A DNA stretch of 64,000 nucleotides from Dehalococcoidia bacterium (GTDB lineage: Bacteria > Chloroflexota > Dehalococcoidia > Plut-88900): positions 672,001-736,000 of the forward strand of contig CBDBLV010000004.1 of assembly GCA_965207225.1 (NCBI GenBank), in the 5' to 3' direction. The notes below the pieces were generated by a model. It had not been told where the DNA came from. It searched no databases and worked only from the letters and a program-made list of their open reading frames with translations. The position numbers and the translations under genes are program-made. Of this stretch, positions 3,701-64,000 are shown piece after piece (within the stretch, counting starts at the first letter, position 1; the number at the start of each line of letters is the position of its first letter).

Positions 3701-5973
3701 TTGGTGGTGGCCACCGTCAGCGCGGCGTAGCCCGCCGACGGGATGGTCACCGTCCGATGTTCCATGGATATCCCGGAGTCGTCGCTCTGCGACACCGTGA
3801 CGCTCACGTCCAGGTCCGCAGCCGGGGCCGGGTTGGCGCTGACCGTGAAGGTCGCGTCCCCGCCCTCGGTCACGTTGCCGTCGGCGGTCACGCTGATCAG
3901 CGGCACGGACGTGTTGGGCGCGGGCGTCTCGAAGTCCACCGTGAAGGTCTTCGGCGTCGCGCCGGCGGCCAGGGTCCGCACGGTGATCTTGTCCAGCTGG
4001 GTCGTCCCGTGAAGGACGGAGACCACGTAGTGCGACTGCGGGTCGAGGCCGGTGAGCTGGTGCTCGGTGGCGGTGGTCGTGACTTCCGTCAGGACCGGGA
4101 CGCCCGTGAAGCTCTCGTGCCAGACGACCAGGTAGGACGCGCCGTCCCCCTGCGGCTTCCAGGCGACGGTCGCCGTGGTGTCGGAGACGCGCTTGAGCTG
4201 CACCGGCGGCGGCGGCGGCAGGTCGTTGTTGGCGATATAGACCGAGGCGTAGCTCCTGAACCTGTTCAGCCGGTAGCCCTCGCCGAACTGCACCGTCGCG
4301 CCGAGCATCCCGTTGGAGCCCCAACCGGTGTCGTCGACGGTGGGGATGGTGAACGAGACGCTGCCGCCGGTGGGCACGTTGACCGTGCGCTCGCCCAGGT
4401 GCTGGGCGGCGACCACGGAGCCGGGGCCGGCCACGCCCACCCTGACGTCCAGCGGCGCGTCGGGCGCGGGGTTCACGGTGACCGTGTAGACCGCGTCCTC
4501 GCCCTCGGTGATGGTGCCGCCGGCGGCGCTGATCGACACCTCGGGCACACGCTCCACGATGACCGACGTGGGCTCCGCCTCCACCGGCGAGCCCGCCGCA
4601 AGCGTGGTGAAGCGAATCACCGGGCTGGCGGTGCTCAGCTGCGTCGCGCCGTGGTCGGCGTAGTAGACCACCGCCCGGTACTCGGTGTCCGGCTCCAGGT
4701 GGCGGATGTTCCAGGCCGGGTCGTTGGGCTCGGCCCCGAACCAGGCCTCGTCGGCCGGGACGCCGGGGAAGGGCGACGTGGTGGACCAGTAGCGCACCTC
4801 GTAGCCCTCGGCGCCGACCACCTGAGGCCAGCTCAGGTCGATGCCCGTGTCGGACAGGTTGGCGTAGCTCAGGTCGCCCACGCGCTCCACCACCGGGTCC
4901 GGCAGGTCGCCCAGCAGCCGCTGGCAGCCCACGCAGGAGCCCAGCGTGCGGTGGAAGCTGAAGCTGTCGGTGCGCACCGTCTTCGGCGGCGTCTCCGTCG
5001 AGATCTGGTTGTCGCTGCGCTCGTACAGCTTGTAGCCCTCGACCTGGAAGGTCACGTTGCCGACCACGTTGGCGCCGACGTGGACGTCGACCTGGACCGG
5101 CGTGCGGCTGACCGTGACCGAGCCGGCGCTGACGGCAGAGTCAGTTCTGAAGGTGTGCAGGTGCGAGGCGGCGGGGCTGGTGAACCAGACCCGGTGGGAC
5201 CGGAAGTACTCCGACGTGCCGCTCCGCAACAGCGGCTCGGCGAAGTCGGCGCTGATGGAGAAGCGCTTGTCCTGGTCCGCCGGCGGGTCGTTCTTCGTCC
5301 GCACCCAGAAGTAGTGCGCCTTGCGCCCCGTGTTCAGCGAGGCCGGGAAGGCCAGATTGAGCCCGCCGTCCTCGATGGACGTCCAGGTGGTCCCGTCGTC
5401 GATGGAGAACTCCAGGGTCTGCTCCCACTCGTCGTCGTCCCTGATGATGAGCGGCACCTGCACCTCGGGGTAGTCGAAGCCTCCCACCTGGTACAGCACG
5501 CCATTTTCATAGAAGTTGTGGCCGACGGCGTGGGGCCGGTGGATCAGGAACGTCCCGTGGTCGAAGGCGTCGCTGTCCTGCCCCGCGGCGAGGCTCACCG
5601 GACGCCACTTGTTGGCGTCGCTCTCGTAGACGGACTGCGACGAGAAGGGGCAGCCGTCGTGCCGGTCCAGCAGCGGGCCGGCGGTGCTGCCGTAGCCGAA
5701 ATGAATCCCATCCCGGCCAAGCCCTTCGACGATGGGGTCGCCCAGGTTGTAGGGGCTGCGGCTCCCGGTGTGGCACATCAGCCGGTCCCGGTCCGGTTTG
5801 CCCGGCCCGATGTAGCCGCCGTGGTGGCTGAGCGGCTCACCCACCTGGCTGGCGACGTAGAAGTGCCGGCGCTCGTGGGGGTCCACCGCCTGCCACTGGT
5901 AGGTCACCGCCGGGCCGCCCTCGGTCAGCGTGATCGTCGGCGGCGGGTCGTGCCTGTTGTAGTTGGCGATCAC
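730..5973 (-). CDS. Large repetitive surface protein (FN3-like, many Calx-beta/Ig-like repeats); possibly the 3' part of one frameshifted gene with 5970-9731
   Basis: 1747 aa; ~104-aa repeats 'PVVSVTAGSGVTEGGDAVFTVT...DETDGSVTATVNAGSGYTVSSSQGAATVAVSDND'; no signal peptide. Confidence 0.85.
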   Translation of the reverse strand: MIANYNRHDPPPTITLTEGGPAVTYQWQAVDPHERRHFYVASQVGEPLSHHGGYIGPGKPDRDRLMCHTGSRSPYNLGDPIVEGLGRDGIHFGYGSTAGPLLDRHDGCPFSSQSVYESDANKWRPVSLAAGQDSDAFDHGTFLIHRPHAVGHNFYENGVLYQVGGFDYPEVQVPLIIRDDDEWEQTLEFSIDDGTTWTSIEDGGLNLAFPASLNTGRKAHYFWVRTKNDPPADQDKRFSISADFAEPLLRSGTSEYFRSHRVWFTSPAASHLHTFRTDSAVSAGSVTVSRTPVQVDVHVGANVVGNVTFQVEGYKLYERSDNQISTETPPKTVRTDSFSFHRTLGSCVGCQRLLGDLPDPVVERVGDLSYANLSDTGIDLSWPQVVGAEGYEVRYWSTTSPFPGVPADEAWFGAEPNDPAWNIRHLEPDTEYRAVVYYADHGATQLSTASPVIRFTTLAAGSPVEAEPTSVIVERVPEVSISAAGGTITEGEDAVYTVTVNPAPDAPLDVRVGVAGPGSVVAAQHLGERTVNVPTGGSVSFTIPTVDDTGWGSNGMLGATVQFGEGYRLNRFRSYASVYIANNDLPPPPPVQLKRVSDTTATVAWKPQGDGASYLVVWHESFTGVPVLTEVTTTATEHQLTGLDPQSHYVVSVLHGTTQLDKITVRTLAAGATPKTFTVDFETPAPNTSVPLISVTADGNVTEGGDATFTVSANPAPAADLDVSVTVSQSDDSGISMEHRTVTIPSAGYAALTVATTNDEVDEPDGSVTVTVDASANLDYRVSSSQGTAVVVVSDDDGGYTVNQGTIARVKELASQTQHGAAHVNRWNRVLLAFGEHDGTGVTGGPMTASEAQDMADNHSSPVWDLVVVELTALEAAAAQTPPPPPTPEVSITAGSGVTEGGDAVFTVTASPAPTANLDVSVTVSQSGDYGAATGQRTVTIPTTGSVTLTVGTTDDNADETDGSVTATVNAGSGYTVSSSQGAATVAVSDNDDASTPVVSVSAGGGITEGGSASFTVSANPAPAANLDVSVTVSQSGDYGATTGQRTVTIPTTGSVTITVGTTDDSADEADGSVTATVNAGSGYTVSSSQGAATAGVADNDDPVVEEQTGYTVDPDVIAKVRELASQTQHGTAHVNRWNRVLVAFGEHDGTGVTGGPMTAAEAQDMADKHSSPVWDEVVTELTALEAASAQTPPPPTPEVSVTAGSGITEGGDAVFTVTASPAPSSNLDVSVTVSQSGDYGATTGQRTVTIPTTGSVTLTVGTTDDTTDETDGSVTATVNAGSGYTVSSSQGAATVAVSDNDDAPTPVVSVTAGSGVTEGGDVVFTVTASPAPASNLAVSVTVSQSGDYGATTGQRTVTVPTSGSVTLTVGTTDDTTDETDGSVIATVNAGSGYTVSSSQGAATVGVSDNDDAPTPVVSVTAGSGVTEGGDAVFTVTASPAPASNLAVSVTVSQSGDYGATTGQRTVTIPTTGSVTLTVGTTDDTTDETDGSVIATVNAGSGYTVSSSQGAATVGVSDNDDAPTPVVSVTAGSGVTEGGDAVFTVTAIPAPAANLAVSVTVSQSGDYGATTGQRTVTIPTTGSVTLTVGTTDDSADETDGSVTATVNAGSGYTVSSSQGAATVGVADNDDAAPEVEITVTVEAASAVEGDVLEFRVRLSEASTEEIRIRWNTAPAYHLLDDRAHMTDYQYTEGELVFAPGVTELTAEVWLEYDDDEEPDEYFVVEAYLPGTLYPPDAVGTMTIKDDD

Positions 5974-8900
5974 CCAGCCCGTCGTCGCACGTCGTTGCCC
6001 GACACCGTGCCCGCGCAGGTGCGGAACTGCACGAAGGCGTCGGCGGCCCCCAGGTTCAGGCCGATCTTGAGCGCCTCGGAGTGGGTGCTCCAGGAGACGG
6101 CGGGGTTGGGGTAGAGCGACCAGGAACTGTGGCCGTCGCCGATGCTCCAGCCCTCGGGCAGGCGCAGGCCCCGCAGGCGCTCGGAGTTCGACGCGGTGGC
6201 GCGAAGGGTGTACGTGCTGTTGGGCTGCACGGACGCGTCGTATACGTACACCCAGTAGGTGGTGTTCGGCTCCAGCCGCAGCCCCGAACCGTCGTCGCCC
6301 TGGTAGGTGAAGGTGAAGGTCCGATCGGCGCTGCCCACCGGCATGGAGGGGCGCGCCAGGTCGGCCAGGACGTCGGCGGCGGTACTGCCCGGCGAGCCGC
6401 CGGAGCCGGCCCAGATCTGTACCCTCAGATCACGGGCGGCGTTGGAGTCGCCGATCTCGGCAAACTCGACGTCGACGCTGTTGAGGCGGTAGTGGCCGCC
6501 GTTCTTGCCCGTCGTGAACGACTGCGCGCGGTCACGTACGGTACTGGCAGTCGTCACGGTCAACGCCGCGCCGTCCGCCTGGCCCAGGTTGCTCATCACC
6601 GCCGGCTCACCGGGCGGCGCGTTCACCGGCGTGGGCTCCACCCGGAACAGGGGCGAGATGCCGTAGAACGCGTGGTCCTGGGTGCTCGCGATGGTGTTGT
6701 AGCTGATGGGGCCGGTGTCCGCGTCGGTGGTCGAGAACCGTCCCCGCCGGGCGTTGCTGGCGCCCAGAGGGTTCGCCTCCTTCGCACCGTCGGTCCTGGT
6801 GCCCGTCCACGGCCAGTCGTTCGAGGTGCTCCTCTCGCCGCTCTCGAAGCGCCGGTCCGCCATCGCCCAGTTCTCCCAGGTGTCGGACCAGAAGCCGGCG
6901 TTGTTCGCCGCGACGCGCTCGCCGTTCAGCCACCAGACCTCCGCGTCCGTGTGCCCGGCGTTGTTGGGGTTGGTCCGGGTGTGGTCCCGGGCGTCCACCG
7001 CGGCGGTGGAGCCCACCACCCGGAAGTGGTCGGCGTAGCGCCGGACGGCGGCGTGCCCGTCGCGGGCCGCCTCCCGCACGTGGGCGTCGTAGACGCCGAT
7101 GTCGGCGGCGGTGGCGTCGCGGTGGTCTTCGGTCATGAACAGCAGCCGGAACGTCTCGCCCGCGCCCAGACCGAGCGGCTTCAGCGGCCAGTCGAAGGGC
7201 ACGGTGTAGGAACCGTCCGCGTGGGGCAGCAGCCGGCCGTTGACTCCCATCGACAGAGTGGAGCCGCCGACCAGGGTGATCCAGTTGCCGCCCCCCTGCG
7301 CGCGGATGCGAGCGTCGTTGTTGATGCTCCAGCCGGGCGCCGCGCCCTCGTCCTCGGAGTTGCTCTGCGTGAACTTCACCTGGCTGTTGCCTTCCGTGAG
7401 TCCGGCTGCGTCCAGCACGACCCAGTAGCGGGTGTCCGCCTCGAGCGCGACGCCCGGGTGCGTGAAGCTGTACGTGCCGGCCTGCCGGTTCACGAAGGCG
7501 GGATTGGCCAGGGTCCCCACGACCGTGCCGGGAGCCCCGTTGGCACCTTTGTGGACGGTGACCGTCAGCTTGGAGCCGAAGTCCTCGGTGGACCGGTTGA
7601 AGGCCACGTCCACGCTGGTCAGGGTGTACCCCGAGGGGTTGCCGCCGGTGTCGAAACCCTGCGCCAGGTCCACGTGCAGGCCCTGCACCAGGCCGCTCGA
7701 CTGGCCGGTGTTCTTCACCAGCGCCGGGTCGTCGTCCCGCACCCGGACCGTCGCCGTCCCCAGCGACGTGGCCAGGTCGTAGTCCGACCCGTCCACCAGC
7801 GTCACCGTGACCGAGCCGTGGGCTTCGTCCACGTCGTCGCCGGTGGTGGGGATCTCCAGCGTCGCGGTGCCCGAGTCCGGGATGGTGACGCTGGTGGGCA
7901 GGGTCCCGTACCCGAAGTCCCCGGTCGTGGCCACCGTCACGCTCACCGGCAGGTCCGCCGTGGGCGCCGGGACCGCCGTCAGCGTGAAGCTGGCGCTGAC
8001 GCCCTCGGTGACGGCGCCGCCGCCAAGGATGCTCACCCTCGACGGCCGCGGCTTGCTGACGCCGTCGAGGCTGATCTTCAGTGACGATACGTTGGGGGTC
8101 CACGCGCCCGTCGAGGAAGCCGTTCTCGTCCCGGCGCCGTCGGCGATGCTCCAGCCGGCCAGGCCCCCGCCGTCCTCGGCGTCCGAACCCGTCAGGCGTA
8201 CCCTCGAAGAACTCTGGCCGGCGTCCATGTCGATCACCAGGAAGTAGGTGGCGCTCCCCTCAAGGTCGATGCCCGCGCTGCTGGTGAAGGTCAGCGTCTG
8301 GTCCGAGGTGGAGGCGGGGAAGCTGGCGGGGTTGGTCAGGGTCCCCAGCGAGCTGCCCGGAGACCCGCCGGAGGCGGCGTGGATGCTGGCGGTCAGCGCC
8401 GAGGAACTGAAGGCGCTGTCGATGGTGGAGAACTCCACGTCGACGCTGTGCAGGCTGTAGCCGAAGCCGTTGGAGCCGGTGGTGAAGGCCTGGTGGAAGT
8501 CATTGCCCAGAAACGAGGTGCCTCCGTCCGCCTGGCCGGTGTTGGCGACGAAGGTCTCCGTCTCGACCGTCTCGACGGCCGTGCCGTGGATGGTCATCTT
8601 GCGGGACTGGCTGAACGAGGTCCAGGCGCCCGAGGTGTTCCAGGTCCGGTAGTGGCCGTCGTCGGCGATGGTCCAGCCGTCCGCGCCGCCGGCGTCCTCG
8701 GCGTCCGACCCGGTGTTCTGGATGGTGTTGGCGCCGGGCAACAGGACCAGGGTGACGTCCAGCACCGCCCAGTACGTGGTGTTCGCCGCGAGCGCCACGC
8801 CCGAGTGCGTGAAGCTGTTCGTGCCGGCGGCAATCGTGCCGGGCTTGGTCAGGGTGGCGACCACCGCGCCCGGCGCTCCGCTGCTGTCGCTTCTGATCTC

Positions 8901-9731
8901 GGCAGCCAGCTTCCCCGCCAGCCCGCCGTCGTTGATTTGCGGAAACGAGAAGTCGACGCCCGTCAGGGTGTACCCGCCGGCGTTGGCGCCCGTCGTGAAC
9001 GCCTGGGCGTGGTCGTGCTGGACGAAATTGCCGGTGCCGCCGTCCGCCTGCCCGAAGTTCGAAACCAGGAAAGGCTTGCTGACGCCGCCGAGGCTGAGTT
9101 TCGGTGATGACGTGCTGGTGGTCCATGCGGCTGTTGAGGAAAATGCTCTAAACAAAGTGCCGTCGCTGATGCTCCAACCGGCCAGGGCTCCGCTGTCCTC
9201 GGCGTCCGAAGTCGTCAAGCGCAGATTCGAAAAGGGCTCACCACTGCTAATGTCAATCACTAGGAAGTAGGTGGTACTCGCCGCAAGGTCGATGCCCGCG
9301 CTGGTGAAGGCCAGCGTCTGGTCCGAGCTGGAGACGGGAAAGCTGGCGGGCTTGGTCAGGGTCCCGAGGGAGCTGCCCGGAGACCCGCTGGAGTCGGTGT
9401 GGATGCTGGCGGTGAGGGATGAAGAGCTGAAGCCGCTGTGGATAGAGGCGAATTCCACGGCGACGCTGGTCAGGGAGTACCCACCCGGGTTGCTGCCGGT
9501 GGTGAAGGCGTGGGCGTAGTCATTGGACAGAGATGTAGCAGCCCCGTCTGCCTGGCCGGTGTTGCTGACGAAGGTCTGCGCGGTCTGCGCGTTAGCCTGC
9601 TCCGCCGGCGTCGCCGCGAACACCACCGCCAGCAGCGCGAGGGCGAGAAGCGCAATCCCAGGGCGCCTCATGAGAGAGAACCCCCACGAAATGCGGGGGG
9701 GGGGGGTGAAGCTCCGCAGCGCGTTGGTCAT
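5970..9731 (-). CDS. Secreted surface protein with repeated choice-of-anchor-R-like domains, a Calx-beta repeat and a lectin-like domain
   Basis: Signal peptide ending 'QANAQ'; five repeats 'VSNTGQADG...AQAFTTGSN.GGYTLTSV'. Confidence 0.8.
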   Translation of the reverse strand: MTNALRSFTPPPRISWGFSLMRRPGIALLALALLAVVFAATPAEQANAQTAQTFVSNTGQADGAATSLSNDYAHAFTTGSNPGGYSLTSVAVEFASIHSGFSSSSLTASIHTDSSGSPGSSLGTLTKPASFPVSSSDQTLAFTSAGIDLAASTTYFLVIDISSGEPFSNLRLTTSDAEDSGALAGWSISDGTLFRAFSSTAAWTTSTSSPKLSLGGVSKPFLVSNFGQADGGTGNFVQHDHAQAFTTGANAGGYTLTGVDFSFPQINDGGLAGKLAAEIRSDSSGAPGAVVATLTKPGTIAAGTNSFTHSGVALAANTTYWAVLDVTLVLLPGANTIQNTGSDAEDAGGADGWTIADDGHYRTWNTSGAWTSFSQSRKMTIHGTAVETVETETFVANTGQADGGTSFLGNDFHQAFTTGSNGFGYSLHSVDVEFSTIDSAFSSSALTASIHAASGGSPGSSLGTLTNPASFPASTSDQTLTFTSSAGIDLEGSATYFLVIDMDAGQSSSRVRLTGSDAEDGGGLAGWSIADGAGTRTASSTGAWTPNVSSLKISLDGVSKPRPSRVSILGGGAVTEGVSASFTLTAVPAPTADLPVSVTVATTGDFGYGTLPTSVTIPDSGTATLEIPTTGDDVDEAHGSVTVTLVDGSDYDLATSLGTATVRVRDDDPALVKNTGQSSGLVQGLHVDLAQGFDTGGNPSGYTLTSVDVAFNRSTEDFGSKLTVTVHKGANGAPGTVVGTLANPAFVNRQAGTYSFTHPGVALEADTRYWVVLDAAGLTEGNSQVKFTQSNSEDEGAAPGWSINNDARIRAQGGGNWITLVGGSTLSMGVNGRLLPHADGSYTVPFDWPLKPLGLGAGETFRLLFMTEDHRDATAADIGVYDAHVREAARDGHAAVRRYADHFRVVGSTAAVDARDHTRTNPNNAGHTDAEVWWLNGERVAANNAGFWSDTWENWAMADRRFESGERSTSNDWPWTGTRTDGAKEANPLGASNARRGRFSTTDADTGPISYNTIASTQDHAFYGISPLFRVEPTPVNAPPGEPAVMSNLGQADGAALTVTTASTVRDRAQSFTTGKNGGHYRLNSVDVEFAEIGDSNAARDLRVQIWAGSGGSPGSTAADVLADLARPSMPVGSADRTFTFTYQGDDGSGLRLEPNTTYWVYVYDASVQPNSTYTLRATASNSERLRGLRLPEGWSIGDGHSSWSLYPNPAVSWSTHSEALKIGLNLGAADAFVQFRTCAGTVSGNDVRRRAG
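9695..9706. repeat. G12 homopolymer (C12 on coding strand) in the first codons of the adhesin gene
   Basis: Counted directly; encodes T-P-P-P-R. Confidence 0.9.
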
Positions 9732-22621: not shown

Positions 22622-24490
22622 TTGGCAGCCACGGATTCACGAGCAGCAGAACTGAACGGCGCAGCGCAGGCCGGAGCGGACCTCGACGAGGCGGTCCGGG
22701 ACTACGTGCGCACCTACGCCGTGCTGCATGGGAAGCCGAAGGCGGCCGAGGCTCTCGGCGTCTCCCGCCACACCCTGTGGCGCTTCCTCGACCGGGGCCA
22801 CGCGGGACGCGCCATACCCCGCGCGGTGCTGGAGCAAGTGGGCGACAGACCAGAGGCGCTGGAGGACGCCGAGGAGCGGCTGATACTCCAGGCGCAAACC
22901 AGGCGGCGGCTGAAGGACGGCGGCCCGTCGACCGGTTCCAAGCGCCTGTCCGAGGCCCTGGAGGACGCCCTCCGGCTGGTCTGCGCAACGCCCCTGGCCA
23001 CCGTGGACGAGCTGTCCCGCTTCGGACGTGTTCCCGCCTCCACTATGAGAGAACGCATTGACAAGCTCGCCAGGCGGGGCCTGGTGGACTCCGTGTCGCA
23101 CCAACTGAGCGTTCTCGGCTCCCGCCCCCAACGACGCTACTTCCCCACGAAGCAGGGCATCGTCGCCGGAGGAAGGATCGAGCACGGCACGGACTACTTC
23201 CTCAGCGAGTACCCGGTGTCCAGACAGTGGTTCCGGCTGCTGGCCGAGCGCATGGACGCCGTGGCCGTCCTCTACCGCCTCGCCACCATGATCGCCGACG
23301 CAGACCCGCACCATAAGCCCGTGCGCGTGGACCACTACCGCAGCGGCCCCTACGACATGCTGATCACTCTGTCGGGTGGCCGCTCCATCGGCATCATCCG
23401 CCAGGGTCAGACCCTACCCACCTCCAACCTGCGCTACCGCCTCAGGAGCGTCGAGCATCTCCCCAGCCGGGAGAAACCTTTCGCCACCCTGGTGCTGACA
23501 CACGCCGACCAGGCCACCCGCAGGGCGATACGCTCATTGGGCGACCCCTCGGAACACCGTAGGACCTTCGCGGCGACGGAGGGGGAGCTTCTGGCCGTTG
23601 CCCACACCGGCGCCGTCTGGCAGCAGTGCGGAGACGGACGGGACAATGACCCGCCCGTGCCTATCGACCCCGGCGCGGCTCTTAGGGGCATCCTGGCGTG
23701 GATGGATCGGCTGCTGGACTCGTCCCATTCGTCCTTCCGCGACAACCCGAGGCCCGATCTCGAAGACCTCTACTCTTCCCGTGTGAAGGCCGCCATGCCG
23801 GAGCCTGCCCAGCAGATCACGTCATCCCCATCGGCGCAACTCACTCGCGCCGGGAAGGACGCCCTGGACCTGCTGTCCGCCTGGCCCCTGTGCACCCGTG
23901 AGCAGCTCGCGGGGCTGATGGGCGGCGTCACCCTGCGTCGGGTCAACCAGGTGCTCCGCTCACTCCGTGAGCACGGCCTCGTGCGGGAGGACGGCTCCCT
24001 GCTCGTTCTCACCGACGAGGGGCTGACACACCTGGCTCGCCGGGACCGGGCCGCCGTCGGCCTCACCCTCGACCGCTGGAGCCCAGAACTCACCCTCAGG
24101 AAGCCCTCCGTCTACGTCGGGACAGCCCTGCGCGCCCTGGCCACCCAGCTGCGCCACCACGCCGGCGTCGTCGGCTTCGCGGCCTCCCTCTCAGCCGAGG
24201 TAGCTAAGTCCCCGGACTACGACCTGTTCGACCTGCTGCCCACCCACCGTTCCAGCATCGGCTACCGCTACGACCAGACCACCTACGCCATTCACCCCGA
24301 CGCATCCTTCACCCTGGAGTACAAAGGCGATTGGCGTCCCTTCCTGCTGGAGTTCGAGCGGAGGGCCACCACGCCGAAGCGCATCCCCAAACGCCTGAGG
24401 TCCTACCGACGTTATTTCACCAGCGGCTGGGCGAAACGAGATCATGAGGGACACCTGCCCAACGTGCTCTTCATCTTCGAGTCCCCCGAC
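22622..24490 (+). pseudogene. Replication-relaxation (Replic_Relax/MOBC-like) protein truncated by IS21
   Basis: Similar to 58644-60305 ('ERMDA...YR','LARRDR','PDA...F.LE.ERRA..P'); reading frame meets the IS end after 'FESPD'. Confidence 0.75.
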
Positions 24491-24585
24491 TGTCGTTACC
24501 CAAGATCTTTGAGCCAGGTTACCCACGAACATTGAGCCACCCTGAACGCCGATGATACGGATTATGACAGGATGCTATCGGCGGT

Positions 24586-25380
24586 TCAATCACCTCCCTT
24601 CTTGCCGAGGATTTTGGCCACCTTTCCCAGTAGGGCGCGGTGAGGAGAGAGCCTCTCCCGGTAGCTGGTGCCCTCGATGACGATCTGGTAGCTGGTGTTG
24701 GCCAGACGGTCCAGGGCGCTGTTGCCCAGGATGGGATCGTTGAAGAGGCTGAGCCACTCTTCGATGGCGCGGTTGGAGGTGATGACGAAGCTGGAGGCCC
24801 GGTGCTTGCCGACGATGAGTTGGTAGAGGTCCGATGACTGTTGTGCGTTAAGACGGTGCAGGCCCAGGTCGTCGAGGATGAGCAGGTCGGGGGAGAGGAA
24901 GGAGCGGAAGGCTTTGTCCACCGAGTTGTCCACCCTGGCTTGGGACATGGCTTTGAAGAAGTCGTATGCGTGGATGAAGCGGACGGAGTATCCGGCTCTG
25001 ACGGCGGCGTAGCCGAGGGCCTGGGCCAGGAAGCTCTTGCCGACGCCCGCCGGTCCCATGAGCAGGACGTGCTCGTGCCTGGGGATGAAGTCCAGGGAGA
25101 AGGCGGCGTCAAGGAGGCGGCGGTCCAGGGTGATTTCGGACGTCCAGTCGAAGTCCTCCAGGCGGCAGGTCTCCTCGAAGCCGGCCCGGTTCAGGCGGGT
25201 CTCGATGCGCCGGTTCTCCCTGCGGCTGACCTCGTCGGCCAGGATGATCTCCAGGAAGGCGGCATAGTCCAACTGGTCCCTTCGGGCCAGGGCGATGCGC
25301 TCGGGCAGGGTGTCCAGCATGCCGCTGAGCTTGAGGGTCTTGAGCAGCGGGGCCAGATCGACGTTGCGGTTGCGGGTCAT
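24586..25380 (-). CDS. istB: IS21 helper ATPase
   Basis: GPAGVGKS, LLILDDLG, ITSNR, ALDRL. Confidence 0.95.
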   Translation of the reverse strand: MTRNRNVDLAPLLKTLKLSGMLDTLPERIALARRDQLDYAAFLEIILADEVSRRENRRIETRLNRAGFEETCRLEDFDWTSEITLDRRLLDAAFSLDFIPRHEHVLLMGPAGVGKSFLAQALGYAAVRAGYSVRFIHAYDFFKAMSQARVDNSVDKAFRSFLSPDLLILDDLGLHRLNAQQSSDLYQLIVGKHRASSFVITSNRAIEEWLSLFNDPILGNSALDRLANTSYQIVIEGTSYRERLSPHRALLGKVAKILGKKGGD

Positions 25381-26957
25381 AGCGTAACTCCTTCGGTTGG
25401 GTGATGGCCGTTGACCAGGGCGAAGACGGAGCCGGGCCTGGCAAAGCGCCCCGGCGGTATGAGGTCGGCAAGGGGCGGCGCATCCTGCTGCTCCAGGGCT
25501 TCAACCAGGATGCGCTCGACGCGGTGCACGTCGATGAGGTCCACGTCCAAGGCCTTGCGGCAGGCGTCGTTCAGCCTGTCGGGGGTGTAGCGCTGGGCGA
25601 GGCGGAGCAGCTTGTGTCCCTGCCGCACCTTGGCCCAAGGCGTGGGGCCTTCGAAGAGCCGGTCGGCGAAGGCGGCCACCGCCTCTCCCAGCTCCGCCGC
25701 GCTCTGCTTGATCTTGTCGGGCCCTCGCAGGGTGTAGGCGATGAACTCCTTTGGGTAGTCGTCGGGGTCGGTGGAGCGTTTGCCCCTGGGCTGACGGGGA
25801 TGGACCTTGATCAGCTTGCCCCGGTGGTAGATGCGCACCAGCTTGCTGTCCAGCGCGATCTCCACCTGCTGCCCCGGAGGGCACAGGGCCGACGGCACCG
25901 AGTAGAGGGCGTGCTGGCAGGTCACGTGGTGGTCGCGCTGCACCTTGGCGTTGCGCCAGCGGGTAACCTCGTAGGGATCGCCGTCCCAGGGCAGCAACGT
26001 CTGGCGCTCCTCTGTGTCGAAGACCTCCACGGGCTTGCGCCTGGTGGTGCCGTGCACCCGCTGTCCGGCCACCTCACGGCACCAGTGGAGCGCTTCCTTC
26101 CGCATGTGAGGCAGGTCCCTGAAGGAGGCTCCCTTGAAGAAGCGCTCTCTCACGTACTGGACTCCCCGCTCCACCTTGGGCTTATCCCTGGGGTGGCGCA
26201 CCCGGGCCGGGTCGGTGATGAAACCCCGGCGCTGCGAGTACTCCAGGAAGCCCCTGGTCAGCCTGGGATGCAGGGCGTCGGCCCCGGCCACCGCCGCCGG
26301 GAAGTTGTCGATGACCAGGTACTTGGGTATGCCGTCGAAGAAAGCCCAGGCCGCCTCCAGTCCGGCGACCACGTCCTCCAGCTTCTGCCCGTGGGTGGGC
26401 CAGACGAAGCTGTGCCGCGAGTAGGCCAGCACCACGATCAGCGCCCACACCGTCCGGCGGCGTCCCGTCTCCGGGTCCTCCAGCGGCCCCAGCCGACCGA
26501 AGTCCAGCTCCGCCACCTCGCCCGGAGGACTCTCCTCCATCCGCACCGTCCGAAGACTGCGGCCTCGCCAGTTGCGGCGGGCCACGAAGCGCTGGAGGGA
26601 CGAATAGGGCACATCGCAGCCCCGCTCCAAGAGCAACTCCCGGATGCGGGTCAGTTGCAGCCGGTCCCCGATGAGCCACTGCTGAATCTGGTCGGCCCAG
26701 GGGGACAGCCTCTCCTCTATGGGCATCTTGGTCTGCCGCGGTCCCGCACGGCCGATGGCCGCCAGCTTGCTCAGTTGCTCCTCGCTGGGACCCGGTCCGT
26801 CCCGGGACAGCCCCAACCTCTCCGCTGAGGAGATGTATTTGACCACCGTGTTCCGGGACAGGCCCGTCCCAGTCGCTATGTGGCGCTGGCTCTCTCCAGC
26901 CTGCCAGCGCCGGATGACTTCTTCTATCTCCACTCTGAGTACCTCCTTGTAGGCCAT
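25377..26957 (-). CDS. istA: IS21 transposase
   Basis: N-terminal HTH, 'PPGEVAELDFG','IDN','P.DKPKVER'. Confidence 0.95.
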   Translation of the reverse strand: MAYKEVLRVEIEEVIRRWQAGESQRHIATGTGLSRNTVVKYISSAERLGLSRDGPGPSEEQLSKLAAIGRAGPRQTKMPIEERLSPWADQIQQWLIGDRLQLTRIRELLLERGCDVPYSSLQRFVARRNWRGRSLRTVRMEESPPGEVAELDFGRLGPLEDPETGRRRTVWALIVVLAYSRHSFVWPTHGQKLEDVVAGLEAAWAFFDGIPKYLVIDNFPAAVAGADALHPRLTRGFLEYSQRRGFITDPARVRHPRDKPKVERGVQYVRERFFKGASFRDLPHMRKEALHWCREVAGQRVHGTTRRKPVEVFDTEERQTLLPWDGDPYEVTRWRNAKVQRDHHVTCQHALYSVPSALCPPGQQVEIALDSKLVRIYHRGKLIKVHPRQPRGKRSTDPDDYPKEFIAYTLRGPDKIKQSAAELGEAVAAFADRLFEGPTPWAKVRQGHKLLRLAQRYTPDRLNDACRKALDVDLIDVHRVERILVEALEQQDAPPLADLIPPGRFARPGSVFALVNGHHPTEGVTL

Positions 26958-27080
26958 CGCGGCACCTCCTTATCAAGTGCTGCAATGGTCTAAGCTGGGG
27001 CGCTCAGGGTGGCTCAAAGACCCTGGTTATCTGGCTCAATGTTAGTGGGTATTGTGGCTCAATGTTCCTGGGTATTGACA

Positions 27081-27134
27081 GACGAACGGCATCCGGCTCA
27101 GGGCGTCGAGCAACTGGTGGTCGGAGAGGGCCAT
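27081..27134 (-). pseudogene. 18-codon N-terminal stub of another relaxase-like gene, cut by IS21
   Basis: MALSDHQLLDALSRMPFV versus 'LEAHLLRTLADMPYL' at the start of 58644. Confidence 0.5.
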
Positions 27135-35105: not shown

Positions 35106-35162
35106 TTACACCTCCAGCTTGAAGGACAAGCGGAAGGTTCTTGATTTTATCAAGTCTGGTAG
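35106..35162 (-). mobile_element. att-like junction of element B with stored LSR tail PDLIKSRTFRLSFKLEV*
   Basis: 35137-35160 is 23/24 identical to 36989-37012. Confidence 0.8.
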
Positions 35163-35340
35163 ACATGGTGGCGGCCAGGCGATATATGGAGGCCACGGCG
35201 TCCATCCTGCGTATGAGCAGCGTCAGTCACTCCCTGTACATGGGGTAGGCCCGCACGAAGTCCGAGGGCGTGTCGAAGCGGAGGACCCACGCGGCTTCGT
35301 CGATGCCCTGGGCCGTCAGGTGGTACTTCTGGCTGGCCGG
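35161..35340 (-). pseudogene. Internal fragment of a relaxase-like gene with internal stop
   Basis: 'YHLTAQGI...RAYPMYRE*LTLLIRRMDAVASIYRLA' aligns with 22622 and 58644 proteins. Confidence 0.75.
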
Positions 35341-35576
35341 CCAGTCAGCATCGGAAAGATGACGAGGGCCATTCCGTCGGAGAGCGTCAAAGTGACGCTC
35401 TTGCCGTAGCGGGACACGTTCGTGAAAGAGCGGTCCTCAATGTCCCCGGCCACGTCAATCTCGGATAGCGTCCGAAATACCGTTGGGCGGACGACGCGGG
35501 CAGAGACCACGGAAGCGCCCACCGCGCGGCGCTCCAGCACCTCGCGGACAATGGTGAGTTCCGGCGCCTCTGGCAC
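35341..35576 (-). pseudogene. Fpg/Nei DNA glycosylase N-terminal fragment
   Basis: 'MPEAPEL','V.RYGK','MLTG'; no H2TH or Zn-finger part. Confidence 0.75.
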
Positions 35577-35606
35577 GGGTTTCGTCCAGCCTGGTTTCTT
35601 ACATGG

Positions 35607-36611
35607 CTACGAACGTATTTGAAAACGGGGCACCCGACCAATACCCAACCAACATCTCAGTCTCTCTGCAATCTCAAGCCCGCCCACCATTCCGGCCGCC
35701 GGTAATGCAACCTCAATCATGAAGCTGAGCGGTGCCGAGAGCACATTCTCCGTGGAACCGCCTTGGTTCCCGAGTACTCCCAAGTTGATGAATATCCATA
35801 GCAACGCGAAGCCGGCAATGAACACGCAGAATATCAGCACTATCTCGATGGCGTACTTTAAGACCGGCAAATGTAATGAAGCCCATGATGCCCCCGTCAC
35901 TGCCAACCAAACTACGATTAGTGTCCAGAAGCGCCAATCCTCACTTTCGTCCAGGGCATCCACGGCAAGCACCAGCACGATGGCCGTGGATATGAATAGA
36001 AACGTGCCGACGAGAGTGCGCTTCCAATTCGACACTACCCAGGGAATCACCCAACGTACAAAGCCAGCGAGAGAGAGTAGTACTACCCATTCGTACACCG
36101 GCTCAGACGTGTCGGCATCGTCGACGTAGAATGCCCATAGCAGGAGAGCTAACCCGGCAAACACCAATCCGCCCCCTGCGACATCGAGCGCAGTTTTCTT
36201 CCAAGAGCTCTCGCGCGTTGCCTCTGGAGGGTCTTCTTTAGATGAGACGAACGATATGCCAGATATGACGAATAGTGCGCCCAAGATCAGGATCACTCCA
36301 GCGGTCCACCAGCGATACACATCGTCGCCAGGCTCCGGCGCAAGTACGAAGGGAACCCATAGCGCCCATGCGACGAAGAGGGCCCCAAGCGCAGTCGCGA
36401 CAAAGACCAACCCGTGGAATAGTCGGGGGTGAATCCTTGATTCAGGTGGCTCTACAGCTACAGAGGCAAGTATCGGCAGCACGGCGAGACCAGGCAGCGC
36501 CCACCAGAAGACCCACCGGGTTACTCCTTCGCCGATATCGACATCTTGCACGTAGTGTCCCCACAGGATAAAGCCAAAGCCTATGATCAGATAGAGGATC
36601 AGGAGCACCAA
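35607..36611 (-). CDS. Polytopic membrane protein, unknown function
   Basis: About 10 hydrophobic segments. Confidence 0.7.
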   Translation of the reverse strand: MVLLILYLIIGFGFILWGHYVQDVDIGEGVTRWVFWWALPGLAVLPILASVAVEPPESRIHPRLFHGLVFVATALGALFVAWALWVPFVLAPEPGDDVYRWWTAGVILILGALFVISGISFVSSKEDPPEATRESSWKKTALDVAGGGLVFAGLALLLWAFYVDDADTSEPVYEWVVLLSLAGFVRWVIPWVVSNWKRTLVGTFLFISTAIVLVLAVDALDESEDWRFWTLIVVWLAVTGASWASLHLPVLKYAIEIVLIFCVFIAGFALLWIFINLGVLGNQGGSTENVLSAPLSFMIEVALPAAGMVGGLEIAERLRCWLGIGRVPRFQIRS

Positions 36612-36957
36612 GCCTGCCTTCTTCAGTCTGTCTCGCGTCAGTTGCGCATCTCCTCACACCTTCCGAACGCGGTTCGACAGTACAGAGTGTAACGTCATGG
36701 CGTGGCTGGCCCCATCGGTAATTCGGTTGGCCTGGGCTCGAGGGTTCGATAGGTTCCCGCGTTCGTGGAAATGACGAGCGGTTCCGTCTCCCGGCTACGC
36801 TCCTGGGCGGCCGCTGCTTTGTCAGTATCTGGTTGGGACACGTCTGCTCCTTTCCCGGGGCACTCTACCTTCAGTCAGGGAGCTCACACCACCTCAAATC
36901 TCTCGGGTTTTCCTATCCCCTCGGGTGTCCCATTATCGCTGACGGTCTACAGATTGG

Positions 36958-37069
36958 CTACAGGTCCAGAACGAGGGTAAGTGTGAAAGTTCTTGATTTT
37001 GTCAAGTCTGGTGGGCCTATTTTGACGGTAGACAGAACCGTCTTCGAATTGAGGCTGGGCAGTCTGTAA
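36958..37069. mobile_element. attL of element C: hybrid site with a stored LSR tail on each strand
   Basis: + strand 37010-37069 GGPILTVDRTVFELRLGSL*; - strand 37011-36958 PDLTKSRTFTLTLVLDL*; core TGGTGG 37009-37014. Confidence 0.9.
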
Positions 37070-37183: not shown

Positions 37184-37606
37184 TCACTCGTGACTGCCTC
37201 TCAGCAGGGCGACGAATCCAGCCTGCTCAAAGTCTCGGTCGTAGGCGAGCGCCTCAGTCAGGTCACGTTCTTCCATTATGAGGAAGCTCGCGCAGTCCGT
37301 TAGGCTCCAGGTCTGATCCTGGCGTGCCTCGTATCGTCCCACCGCTGTCCAAAACTGGTCCTCAGTAAGCCAGACAACCTCAATGCTTGGTCTGCCACGA
37401 AGACTCTTCGCCCATTCAGTTGCACGCTGTCGCATGTACTCGCCACGGGTCGATGCGAAATTGAGTACCTCGACCACAACCATATGGGTCGTGACCAGTT
37501 GGTCCGCGATGGATTCTGAGCTCAAGTCGAGTGCGCGGGCGTGAAGGTCGTCTCGGTTGTCGAGTAGTGCGATCCAATATCCACTGTCAGCGAACACCAC
37601 ACGCAT
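37184..37606 (-). CDS. vapC: PIN-domain toxin
   Basis: 'VFADSGYWIAL...D..H','SLTDCASF..M','D.DF.QAGF'. Confidence 0.9.
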   Translation of the reverse strand: MRVVFADSGYWIALLDNRDDLHARALDLSSESIADQLVTTHMVVVEVLNFASTRGEYMRQRATEWAKSLRGRPSIEVVWLTEDQFWTAVGRYEARQDQTWSLTDCASFLIMEERDLTEALAYDRDFEQAGFVALLRGSHE

Positions 37607-37890
37607 TACGGTTCCTTCTTCGGATGACCGTACATGTAGTGTTTGTAGTTGACAGAGCCATCGGTGGGTCGGTCTCGTCCGTCATCCGGGTACTTCTCAA
37701 TGAGGTGCCTGGCCAACATTGACATGTCTCCGATAGCATTCGCGCCCTTCGCCGCGGCTTGAACGGGAATCTCCTCAATCACCAGGGCCACTTCCGCTCC
37801 CTCGGCAATGTCCAAGGGCTCCAGGGGCGTGAGAACGCCGTTGGAGTACTTGGCCTTCACGTTCGCAATCATGACGCTCCCCTCTGACAT
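37606..37890 (-). CDS. AF2212/DUF104-like antitoxin
   Basis: 'VKAKYSNGVLTPLEPLDIAEGAEV'; coupled to vapC. Confidence 0.85.
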   Translation of the reverse strand: MSEGSVMIANVKAKYSNGVLTPLEPLDIAEGAEVALVIEEIPVQAAAKGANAIGDMSMLARHLIEKYPDDGRDRPTDGSVNYKHYMYGHPKKEP

Positions 37891-61399: not shown

Positions 61400-61693
61400 A
61401 TGATTGTCTCATTCAGAGACGGCGGTACAGAGGACATCTTCAACGGGCAATCCACTCAAGCGGCCCTGCGGGCATGTCCCATGCCGATATGGGGAGTGGC
61501 TCATCGAAAGCTTGACCAGATCGATTCCGCCTCCGTTCTGGGAGACCTCAGAATACCTCCCGGCAACCGCCTGGAACGGCTGGCCGGAGATCGAAGCGGG
61601 CAACACGGTATTCGCGTCAACGACAGGTATCGAATCTGCTTCACGTGGACACCTGCCGGACCCGCCGACGTCGAAATCACCGACTATCACTGA
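61400..61693 (+). CDS. higB: HigB toxin
   Basis: 'MIVSFRD','DLRIPPGNRLE.L.GDR.GQH.IRVND.YRICF.W','DVEITDYH'. Confidence 0.95.
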   Translation: MIVSFRDGGTEDIFNGQSTQAALRACPMPIWGVAHRKLDQIDSASVLGDLRIPPGNRLERLAGDRSGQHGIRVNDRYRICFTWTPAGPADVEITDYH

Positions 61694-61701
61694 AGAGGAG
61701 A

Positions 61702-62067
61702 ATGAGCATGGTACGCATTCCCACCGATCGAGAGCCTACGCATCCGGGCGAGATGCTTCTGACGGAGTTCCTGCTGCCCCTCGGAATGACTCAGCGCGAC
61801 CTGTCCAATGCCATTCACGTGCCCTATCAGAGGGTCAACGAAGTCGTCCGAGGGAAGCGGGGGGTCACGCCAAGCACCGCCCTGAGGCTCTCTAGGTTCT
61901 TCGGCACTTCGCCCGGCTTTTGGATGAACCTGCAACTCCGTTGGGACCTCTACCACGCCGAGCGTTCCGAGGCTGAACAGATCGAGGGCATCCTTCCGCG
62001 TGAAATGGTCAGCGCGCTTGGGGAAGACACGGGTTCGATGACGACGATGCCGGGTGTTGCAGGCTAG
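61702..62067 (+). CDS. higA: HigA antitoxin
   Basis: 'PTHPGEML..EFL.PLG','TALRLSRFFGTSPGFWMNLQ..WDL'. Confidence 0.95.
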   Translation: MSMVRIPTDREPTHPGEMLLTEFLLPLGMTQRDLSNAIHVPYQRVNEVVRGKRGVTPSTALRLSRFFGTSPGFWMNLQLRWDLYHAERSEAEQIEGILPREMVSALGEDTGSMTTMPGVAG

Positions 62068-62111
62068 TAGTGGCCCACGGGAACGACAGGAAACAGGAGG
62101 AGGACTCACAG

Positions 62112-64000
62112 ATGAACAATAGAAGCGACTACACCCCCGTGGCCCTCTACGCCAGGGTCTCCAGCGACAGACAGGACGTGGACCTGTCCGTGGCCGCACA
62201 GTTGCGGGCGCTCAGGGAATACGCCCAGAAGAACGACTACGTGGTCGTCCGCGAGTACGTGGACGAGGCCGAGAGCGGGCGCGTCGCCGACCGCCCGGAG
62301 TTCCGCAAGATGATCGACGAGGTCGCCAAGCCCGAGGCCCCGTTTAGAAAAATCCTTGTGTGGAAATTTAGTAGATTCACCAGAAAGCGCGAGCACGCCG
62401 TCGCCTTCAAGTCCATGCTCAGGCGAAAGGGCGTCCGCGTCGTCTCCATCACCGAGCAGGCCGACGACACCGCCACCGGCAGGCTCCTTGAGGGCATCAT
62501 CGAGTCCGTCGATGAGTTTTACTCGGAAAATCTTGCGGAAGAGGTTCGCCGTGGGATGCGGGAGGCCGCTTCCAGAGGCTTCTGGGTCGCCAGCCGGACG
62601 CCCTACGGCTACAACCGCGTCATGGTGCAGGACGGAGCCAAGAAGCGGCCCACACTGGAGATCGACCCTGACACTGCTCCCGTCGTCAAGCGCATCTTCG
62701 ACATGGCCGAGTCGGCCACCGGGATGACCGAAATCACCCGCACACTCAACGGCGAGGGCATCGCCAGCGCCACCGGCAAGCTCTGGTCCAAGAACGGCGT
62801 CCACTTCATCCTCAGAAACGAGGTCTACACGGGCACGCTGCTCTGGGGCACTACAGGGAAGGTCAAGTCCGACCCCGTACGCATAGAGAAGGCGTTCCCC
62901 GCCGTCGTCTCCAAGGCCCAATTCAACCGCGTCAAGCGGCTCATGCGCTCCCGCGCCCCCAAAAGGAACCACCCCCGCAGGGTGGGAAGCTCCTACCTGC
63001 TCAGCGGGCTGGTCAGGTGCAAGTCCTGCAACAGGGCGCTCTCAGGCCAGGACGCCAAGAGCGGCCAGTTCGCCTACTACGTCTGCCAGTCCATCATGAA
63101 GCGGGGCAAGAACGCTTGCACGACCCCCAGGCTCAACGCACGACGCTTCGAGGAGATGGTGGTGGAGAGGATACGGGAGAACGTCCTCACCGAGTCCAAC
63201 ATCACCGAACTGGTCAAGATAGTGGACGAGGAGATGGATGGGGTCGCCGCCGAGCAGCGGCAGAAGCTGGAGACCATCGAGGCCGAGCTTGATGAGGTCA
63301 AGCGCAAGCTGGGCCGCGTCTGGCACCTGGTGGAGAACACCGACCTCGACATGGCCGACGCCTCGGAACGCATCAGGGAGCACCGGGAGCGTCAACAGCG
63401 CCTTGAGGACTCGGCGGCCGAGGCCAGGACCATCCTCTCCCAGCGCAGGGAGGTGCTGGACGACGTGGAGACCATCGCGGCCTATGCCCAGGACATGAGC
63501 GAGTTCCTGAAGGAGAGCGAACTGACCGAGCGCAGGGCCTTCATCGAGTCTTTCGTCAAGGAGATCGTCGTCATGCCCGACAACGCCCTCCTCCGGTACA
63601 CCATCCCCATGCCTCAGGATGGACCGGTAGGAGGGAGAAACGCCGAGGAGATGGCCCTGAACGGCTCGGTTCTGTCTACCGTCAAAAATGGTGGACTGGA
63701 CTTGACGAAATCAAGAACCGAGGCCGATTCCTTCGTCACGCCGTCGCTGGGCATGGGGACCGTGTACGTCAGGGTCGCCTCGTCTCCGACCACCTCGATA
63801 CTCTCAACGAAGTTGCGGATGAGCGCCTTGCGCTCGGGGATCGTCCCTTCCTTCAGGAACTCCCTGAAGTCCGCCACGTACTCCCGAATCACGTCGGTTG
63901 TGGGCAGTTCCACCCTGCGCTGCTCAAGTCGGGTCTCCGCGTCCTCCCGCGCAGCCTCAAGCTGCTCCTCGCGGTGCCTTAGAGACATGATGCGGGGCGA
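62112..64000 (+). CDS. Large serine recombinase 1 (own sequence ends at att ~63694; no stop codon within window)
   Basis: Absent from ORF track. MNNRSDYTPVALYARVSSDRQD, 'FSRFTR', 'PYGY', Zn ribbon 'CKSC...YYVC...C', coiled coil. Confidence 0.95.
   Translation, partial: MNNRSDYTPVALYARVSSDRQDVDLSVAAQLRALREYAQKNDYVVVREYVDEAESGRVADRPEFRKMIDEVAKPEAPFRKILVWKFSRFTRKREHAVAFKSMLRRKGVRVVSITEQADDTATGRLLEGIIESVDEFYSENLAEEVRRGMREAASRGFWVASRTPYGYNRVMVQDGAKKRPTLEIDPDTAPVVKRIFDMAESATGMTEITRTLNGEGIASATGKLWSKNGVHFILRNEVYTGTLLWGTTGKVKSDPVRIEKAFPAVVSKAQFNRVKRLMRSRAPKRNHPRRVGSSYLLSGLVRCKSCNRALSGQDAKSGQFAYYVCQSIMKRGKNACTTPRLNARRFEEMVVERIRENVLTESNITELVKIVDEEMDGVAAEQRQKLETIEAELDEVKRKLGRVWHLVENTDLDMADASERIREHRERQQRLEDSAAEARTILSQRREVLDDVETIAAYAQDMSEFLKESELTERRAFIESFVKEIVVMPDNALLRYTIPMPQDGPVGGRNAEEMALNGSVLSTVKNGGLDLTKSRTEADSFVTPSLGMGTVYVRVASSPTTSILSTKLRMSALRSGIVPSFRNSLKSATYSRITSVVGSSTLRCSSRVSASSRAASSCSSRCLRDMMRG
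63614..64000 (-). CDS. C-terminus of large serine recombinase 2 (element D, continues beyond window)
   Basis: 'EFLKEGTIPERKALIRNFVESIEV...LTYTVPMP.DG' matches LSR1 'EFLKESELTERRAFIESFVKEIVV...RYTIPMPQDG'. Confidence 0.85.
   Translation of the reverse strand, partial: SPRIMSLRHREEQLEAAREDAETRLEQRRVELPTTDVIREYVADFREFLKEGTIPERKALIRNFVESIEVVGDEATLTYTVPMPSDGVTKESASVLDFVKSSPPFLTVDRTEPFRAISSAFLPPTGPS
63667..63719. mobile_element. attR of element C, overlapping both LSR coding ends
   Basis: Left arm is the exact reverse complement of 37020-37040; right arm 63699-63718 is a 19/20 reverse complement of 36989-37008; core TGGTGG. Confidence 0.92.

Follow-up and report, generated by a model that had tools for sequence, protein, structure and literature searches.

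Overlapping convergent serine recombinase genes as probable hybrid attachment sites between tandem mobile elements in a Dehalococcoidia genome

Overlapping recombinase genes and their explanation

The DNA analyzed here, in the following the window, is a stretch of 64,000 nucleotides from contig C4 (C4:672001-736000) of a five-contig, 4.03-Mb metagenome-assembled genome (MAG) of the Dehalococcoidia, termed G000 (92 % complete, 8.3 % contamination). It ends within a pair of large serine recombinase (LSR) genes that overlap tail to tail: LSR1 is the last gene of a mobile element, called element C, and LSR2 reads towards it from the adjoining DNA. Such overlapping convergent recombinase genes are most probably the hybrid attachment (att) site between neighbors of opposite polarity in a tandem array of elements, which has a tRNA gene as its attB. 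Every element of the family keeps its attP within the final ~20 codons of its LSR gene. The elements fall into class I (LSR1-type and two related types) and class II (LSR2-type). If a class I element lies beyond a class II element as seen from the tRNA, the two genes are fused tail to tail at the core of the att site, and each fused open reading frame (ORF) continues through antisense sequence of its partner up to the first stop. Each junction was probably made by serine recombinase strand exchange at the central GG, and the tail extensions would be by-products, not functional peptides.

An earlier note on this DNA had described the tail-to-tail overlap, and all sequence features named there are present; the overlap of the two ORFs amounts to 430 nt. 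Both proteins are LSRs (serine integrases) by their domain content: Resolvase, Recombinase and Zn_ribbon_recom were detected with E-values of 2.7e-34, 8.1e-21 and 4.5e-12 in LSR1, and of 1.7e-33, 4.1e-26 and 1.5e-14 in LSR2. The features of the locus are the following, in window positions:

62070-63692, plus strand: part of LSR1 encoded by element C, 541 amino acids (aa), with Resolvase, Recombinase and Zn_ribbon_recom domains; its last codons are the head arm of the attP of C
62070-64043 (past the window end), plus strand: whole LSR1 ORF, 657 aa
63693-64043, plus strand: read-through extension of LSR1, antisense to LSR2, 117 codons from core to stop, 116 residues
65287-63614, minus strand: whole LSR2 gene, 557 aa, with Resolvase, Recombinase and Zn_ribbon_recom domains; its 3' part lies within the window (63614-64000)
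37013-63692, plus strand: element C, 26,680 bp, 64.6 % GC
36989-37040, no strand: left hybrid att junction, composed of a class II tail arm, TGGTGG (37009-37014) and the tail arm of C; site C4:709009
63667-63718, no strand: right hybrid att junction, composed of the LSR1 head arm, TGGTGG (63689-63694) and the reverse complement of the LSR2 head arm; site C4:735689
35162-37008, no strand: tail-proximal module of another LSR2-type element, 1.85 kb, preceded by a second tail arm (35136-35157)

Both recombinase genes hold the att site in their final ~20 codons, and the frames around it show how the present tails are composed. LSR2 now ends in PPFLTVDRTEPFRAISSAFLPPTGPS and a stop, the final 25 codons past the core being antisense LSR1 sequence. 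On the reverse strand of the left flank, the LSR2 frame reads PPDLTKSRTFTLTLVLDL and a stop, and joining of the two flanks carries LSR2 on for 17 codons to this stop. The left end of C, read in the LSR1 frame, gives GPILTVDRTVFELRLGSL and a stop.

Element C and its two junctions

The junctions of C form the longest inverted repeat of the window, with arms of 52 nt (36989-37040 and 63667-63718) that are 85 % complementary. The core TGGTGG is the sole sequence common to both junctions. The outer arms, 36989-37008 and the reverse complement of 63699-63718, agree in 19 of 20 positions; the inner arms, which are the attP arms of C itself, agree in all 21 (63667-63687 and the reverse complement of 37020-37040). 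Thus the arms are swapped between the junctions and define two imperfect palindromes, as expected of two hybrid sites, the attL and attR of a serine integrase. The prediction of the earlier note that joining the flanks yields a palindrome with 19/20 arms on the same GG, and would give LSR2 back a short tail, agrees with the sequence. The junctions carry no long direct repeat, the arms are exchanged, and the symmetry places the predicted cut on the last GG of the core. In all attP-type sites scored (57 arms), the motif GAAC is found 22 nt from this center on either arm; on the tRNA arms the distance is 16 nt (11/11), and from flank arms the motif is mostly absent. This spacing supports the center on the last GG. 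Both arms of the LSR2 palindrome have the attP-type geometry.

From left to right, C encodes a PIN protein with antitoxin, a Calx-beta surface protein, a VirB4/TraC-like ATPase, a coupling protein, a Replic_Relax protein, a HigB/helix-turn-helix (HTH) pair and LSR1. The conjugation-type domains were detected at different strength: P-loop_TraG/TraC ATPase at 9.4e-13, the coupling protein weakly at 6e-06, and Replic_Relax at 1.4e-05, barely past the cut-off. No channel genes were identified in C. The sequence evidence supports C as a putative recombinase-bounded element of the conjugation type. Toxin-antitoxin-like pairs are present at both ends of C, PIN and AF2212-like at 37184-37890 and HigB-like with HTH at 61400-62067, just upstream of LSR1. 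Among the nearest ORFs scanned, LSR1 has the HigB-like and HTH genes as neighbors, and LSR2 an HTH gene, a 185-aa Replic_Relax fragment and trypsin-like peptidases.

At C4:892737-903396, up to the contig end, the right 10,660 nt of C are repeated with 100 % identity, and there the LSR1 head is joined to a different tail arm. Two further contigs, C2 and C3, begin inside C-like elements (98.3 % and 96.7 % identity).

Shared core, tRNA targets and polarity classes

All sites share the core TGGTGG, usually followed by GCC. This sequence is complementary to the 3' end of the tRNA (GGCCCACCA), so that the tRNA is rebuilt upon integration. The two classes read this core in opposite senses. Class I genes read TGGTGG and end in the head arm; an integrated class I gene adjoins the tRNA and converges on it. 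Class II genes read CCACCA and occupy, in core orientation, the place of the tRNA; the integrated gene is situated at the tRNA-distal end. A convergent pair is hence the sign of a class I/class II boundary in a tandem array. The tRNA targets are evident from five LSR1-type heads that adjoin whole tRNA genes in antisense orientation (Ile, Ala, Lys, Val-gac, Met) and from two related recombinases joined to tRNA-Val(tac) and tRNA-Gln. No tmRNA was present at tRNA-joined or element-arm target sites.

At the center of the site, GG in the sense of LSR1 is CC in the sense of LSR2, which fixes the antiparallel orientation of a pair. The earlier note had argued that this forces the inverted orientation, and the census agrees: all seven pairs in G000 are convergent, as are 26 pairs in other assemblies, for which only opposite-strand partners were sought.

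A scan of G000 for the att arm types around the core revealed seven head-head junctions, seven junctions of a class II tail with a class I tail (one of the latter is in fact the head arm of another recombinase), three of a class II tail with a third-type tail, five of chromosomal flank with an LSR2-type head, and two of a class II tail with flank.

Recurrence in the genome and in other assemblies

A tblastn search of G000 with the LSR1 and LSR2 proteins identified 37 recombinase loci, of which 33 belong to the LSR1/LSR2 family and four are distant (~25 % identity). Convergent LSR1-type/LSR2-type pairs occur seven times, three on contig C3 and two each on C4 and C5. The recombinase tails past the core differ widely in every copy and change with the integration state. 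Over the seven pairs, the identity of one partner does not correlate with that of the other (Spearman 0.15, p 0.52): LSR1 of the window is 98 % identical to the LSR1 of a pair on C5 whose LSR2 shares 87 % with that of the window, and the closest relative of the window LSR2 (92 %) has a partner that is 78 % identical to LSR1. The pairs were thus formed separately and not copied as units. In a first look, 57 recombinase candidates were counted in G000, 4-16 in five relatives of the genus and 32 in a relative of the family. The genome size of 4.03 Mb compares with 2.9-3.7 Mb for eight other members of the genus.

The arrangement is not confined to G000. The comparison set consisted of 80 LSR2-type loci from other Dehalococcoidia assemblies, 77 of them with the head arm. 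A survey for convergent LSR pairs sharing one att site, proposed in the earlier note, gave at least 26 hits among the 80 loci, counted with fixed thresholds as a recombinase on the opposite strand converging on the 3' end. In one foreign genome, a 99 % identical LSR1 converges on an LSR2-type gene of 80 % identity, and the far junction is flank joined to tail. Unoccupied sites with the kind of tail that had been predicted were also obtained: a complete LSR2-type palindrome is present at two of the 77 loci with the arm, and at one of these, L031, the arms match in 20 of 20 positions and the gene has a short natural tail. Of 151 genomes sampled from the class, 38 (G000 included) have LSR1 homologues (E <= 1e-60), and the nearest relatives of the recombinases are all from MAGs of Dehalococcoidia or Chloroflexota. 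Public runs in which the locus occurs are metagenomes of sponge, coral and marine origin; in four runs of one sample it was represented by 0.90-0.95 of the sampled words.

Many LSR2-type genes stand alone (loci L019-L074 and G000 C4:29087) and have a T-loop-like motif, GACTCGAAC, 7-15 nt past the core. This motif may be a half-site of the target of the LSR2-type recombinases themselves. A true tRNA at this arm was looked for with ARAGORN in 21 loci overall, and none adjoined the gene in the 17 loci with such an arm (17/17).

Arrays on tRNA genes and the order of insertion

Arrays of elements are found at several places in G000. Five elements follow in a row from tRNA-Met (C5:1911997-1990340), and contig C3 opens with ~107 kb of alternating elements. 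The array of the window starts from a chromosomal flank (C4:646001-664760) that is syntenic with two relatives, G137 and G102, in which it directly abuts tRNA-Val(gac). G102 presents the empty site, with flank, TGGTGG and tRNA-Val(gac) in this order, and its flank corresponds to the DNA that starts the array at C4:664769. In G000, tRNA-Val(gac) is located at C5:1036575 and closes another run of elements, the other half of the attB being at C4:664769. The window hence appears to lie inside a very long array, the ends of which are now on different contigs.

G137, which belongs to the same genus, has a 25.9-kb island with flank and LSR2-type head at one end, a tail joined to tRNA-Val(tac) at the other, and core synteny on both sides; this layout indicates that class II elements integrate at tRNAs with the recombinase at the far end. 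Positions 35162-37016 of the window are 97 % identical to the tail of this island where it is joined directly to tRNA-Val(tac). For the interior beside LSR2, no close match was obtained in the 20 relatives searched; there the recombinase gene alone was matched, with 78-90 % identity. With a G137-like tail on the left and an interior without relative on the right, C is flanked by two different class II elements. Of the earlier claim that C had inserted into the att site of another element, the recombinase-bounded nature of C stood, and the single resident element gave way to a boundary in a tRNA-anchored tandem array. The 1.85-kb module is itself bracketed by class II tail arms (35136-35157 and 36989-37008), the first followed by TGGTAG, not TGGTGG; in G137, a 28-nt match to the first arm is situated at the equivalent place beside its copy of the module. 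On C5, a paralogous two-element array has a right flank without match in eight relatives of the genus, and no intermediate state was found there; its left flank matched over ~820 nt only, a stretch that is also paralogous elsewhere in G000.

Several observations weigh against the boundary in a tRNA-anchored array. In the assembly the array is interrupted: neither a class II tail arm nor a tRNA is present within 84 kb to the right of LSR2, that is, none before C4:821810. Between C4:735689 and C4:821835 the sites change their orientation, and tRNA-Val(gac), the anchor, is placed on another contig (C5:1036575). Contigs from public runs break at 37015/37016 and at 37030, leaving the left junction unbridged, and the pairing of left and right junction is taken from the assembly alone. 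Given the contamination of 8.3 % and contig ends inside C-like repeats, some adjacencies could be choices of the assembler.

As the order of events within such an array, stepwise growth beside the tRNA is slightly preferred, a choice we make tentatively. C would have entered a site composed of class II tail and tRNA-Val, and the LSR2 element would then have entered the new site of LSR1 head and tRNA. In favor of this order, the seven tRNA targets have nothing in common but the tRNA arm, and insertion beside a tRNA would need no new specificity. The precursor junction, a class II tail joined to a tRNA, exists in G137. The state of the LSR2 element speaks against it: with its 185-aa Replic_Relax fragment it looks decayed, which fits ill with an arrival after C.

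The alternative order, a possible one in our estimate, is that C entered a complete palindromic LSR2-type att site directly via LSR1 and thereby cut the LSR2 frame, the site being either attP-like or a tandem class II boundary. The joined flanks described above, with their 19/20 arms, common GG and 17-codon continuation of LSR2, are what this order predicts, and complete palindromes do exist in other chromosomes, at L031 with perfect arms. Both target arms have the attP geometry. The second copy of C beside a different tail arm suggests that at least one recent insertion probably took place between attP-type arms within the array. Furthermore, the elements to the left of C are decayed, with an insertion sequence (IS) at 24487-27084 and missing recombinase genes, and the LSR2 element also looks old. 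However, the halves of the restored site derive from different class II elements, and no attP of a single element was hit. The exact left arm and 1.85 kb next to it are joined to a tRNA in the relative, which is the precursor of the stepwise order, and the tRNA targets share the tRNA arm only. Without a directionality factor, serine integrases normally pair attP only with attB, which also counts against direct entry. Among the loose contig ends listed from public runs, no empty-site contig with joined flanks and no circular junction was present, which speaks neither for nor against an empty allele. Growth of the array at its far end is a third route; this, rearrangement or mis-pairing share what remains beside the two orders. 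Under any of the three insertion routes, every target after the first would have held at least one attP-type arm.

The earlier note went further and took attP-like junctions to be used as targets. Both target arms do have the attP-type geometry, but stepwise insertion beside a tRNA could lead to the same junctions without attP x attP recombination. That LSR1-type integrases accept the palindromic att site in LSR2-type 3' ends as a true target, in an attP x attP-like reaction by which the elements colonize each other, is in our opinion doubtful. The LSR2 arm is similar to a tRNA acceptor/T-arm and has the same core. If true, mutual colonization would fuse and re-tail both recombinases and lock neighbors into chains that move only together; it could help to explain the single-contig arrays of up to ~107 kb and a genome 0.3-1.1 Mb above those of the genus relatives.

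Tail extensions, assembly and duplication

The earlier note had also claimed that the newcomer alters the recombinase of the resident. At the level of the ORF this is the case, but the long antisense extension represents a shadow frame. In the overlap, LSR1 and LSR2 have coinciding third codon positions, and in each of the 12 LSR2-type genes scored the antisense frame stays open over exactly 117 codons counted from the core; five of these genes have no partner. An open frame without partner, together with the coinciding third positions, identifies the LSR1 extension as the shadow frame of a gene rich in G and C at third codon positions. As judged from the sequence, the 116-residue extension provides no evidence of a selected product.

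These frames bear on the idea that the overlap is a selected regulatory device, either by antisense or convergent silencing or by swapped tails that tune the recombinase to its integration state. The tails indeed change with integration state in every copy, and the same idea was raised for dsiB by the authors of the Dehalococcoides study in the text of PMC3146451. The extension frame is open, however, in five of the 12 LSR2-type genes without any partner, and the tails past the core differ widely from copy to copy. We consider a selected device unlikely.

Still somewhat less likely is an adjacency produced by assembly or strain mixture, in which two identical copies of C were threaded with the wrong pairing of flanks. 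The second copy of 100 % identity ends a contig, the MAG is contaminated to 8.3 %, contigs of the public runs end at 37015 and resume at 37030, and the read depth of C is 3-4.6x that of unique flank (run X19: 124-210 on C, ~45 on unique flank). Against an artifact, each type of junction recurs in G000 and in single-contig chromosomes of other assemblies, so the junctions themselves are real, and only their pairing across 26.7 kb is open to doubt.

That a composite pair formed once and was then copied whole, the seven pairs being duplicates, is contradicted by the uncorrelated partner identities described above, with the 92 % LSR2 relative and its 78 % partner as an example, and by far junctions that differ (flank joined to tail at C5:2003423 and in genome G156, class II tail joined to tail here), although one BLAST alignment of 95 % identity passes through LSR1, junction and LSR2 (window against C5:2023721-2033924).

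Other features in and around the window

The IS-like element at 24487-27084 has terminal inverted repeats of 53 nt and ORFs of 526 and 264 aa; it is located inside an element remnant without recombinase gene, and five more copies with ~99.3 % identity are present in the genome. At 730-9731, and upstream of the window at about -7231 to -5100, two giant genes (1747 and 1253 aa) consist of 327-nt tandem repeats. Near-identical copies of the giant genes (96-98 %) beside the tail arms of several other elements mark them as mobile-element cargo. Past the window end, on the right of LSR2, a large inverted duplication, imperfect with 76-89 % identity, extends over positions ~71600-86100 and ~104600-117600 in window numbering (C4:743.6-789.6 kb). 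It looks like two related elements face to face, with no att site or tRNA between them.

Relation to known systems

The closest known counterpart is found in the same bacterial class. The ssrA islands of Dehalococcoides carry at their edge DsiB, a serine recombinase of 540 aa (McMurdie et al. 2011, PMC3146451). According to the text of that paper, the 3' end of dsiB always overlaps attL, and its stop is reached only past the island border, within the next island or antisense to ssrA; the islands follow one another in tandem downstream of one target, and accretion was invoked (PMC3146451). The system described here shares with these islands the outward-reading recombinase at the edge, the 3' end over the att site, the stop outside the element and the tandem arrangement, as in the five elements at tRNA-Met and the array from the tRNA-Val(gac) flank. 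It differs in its targets, which are seven tRNA 3' ends (Ile, Ala, Lys, Val-gac, Val-tac, Met, Gln) and element arms instead of ssrA. Two polarity classes on one core, leading to convergent pairs, do not appear in the text of PMC3146451. C carries conjugation-type genes, and the arrays are much larger. The small serine recombinase DsiA and the ParB-like and Mom-like genes of the DsiB module as given in that text are missing among the nearest ORFs of LSR1 and LSR2. Homologues with 42-48 % identity occur in single-contig genomes of 1.4-1.9 Mb of the class, DsiB itself being compared by description only; three such loci, in two genomes, adjoin tRNA-Ala. On this analysis, the system is of the same kind as the ssrA/DsiB islands, and what appears new are the many tRNA targets, the conjugation-type cargo, the two polarity classes, the convergent pairs and the larger arrays.

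Site-specific accretion and nested integration have been described for streptococcal elements, both of the integrative and conjugative kind (ICEs) and of the integrative and mobilizable kind (IMEs) (PMC5704250, PMC12942858, PMC13651849). As in those systems, judged by the abstracts, a newcomer uses the att site of the resident, and tandem or nested composites able to move together are formed. The abstracts on streptococcal ICEs and IMEs make no mention of att sites in recombinase 3' ends or of convergent overlap, in contrast to the locus studied here. In the literature searched, no paper dealt with serine recombinase genes that converge and overlap, with arrays anchored at tRNA genes in Dehalococcoidia of sponges, or with the other traits listed above as new; the figures and supplements of PMC3146451 may hold more.

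The integrases of phiC31, Bxb1 and the Listeria A118 type are proteins of three domains that act on imperfect palindromic att sites; a non-palindromic central dinucleotide sets the polarity, and the target is not duplicated. In phage serine integrases, the outer recognition motif lies closer to the center in attB than in attP. The GAAC motif behaves alike, being 16 nt from the center on tRNA arms and 22 nt from it on attP-type arms. Unlike in the phage systems, attP is placed here inside the coding end of the recombinase itself, and the natural attB has one recognizable half-site, the tRNA arm; targets with attP-type arms are implied by the arrays.

Significance

Overlapping recombinases of 557-658 aa, which look odd to annotation pipelines, can be read as element boundaries, and the shared core together with the two polarity classes supplies a simple rule to cut the island arrays of Dehalococcoidia into elements. 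Serine integrases are prized as one-way tools for attP x attB recombination; in this family the attB is a one-armed tRNA site, and attP-type arms are implied as targets. If assays confirm this, the family would offer enzymes with relaxed or programmable partner rules. For the organism, the locus provides a model of how mobile elements may accumulate, become trapped by each other and enlarge the genome of a symbiont.

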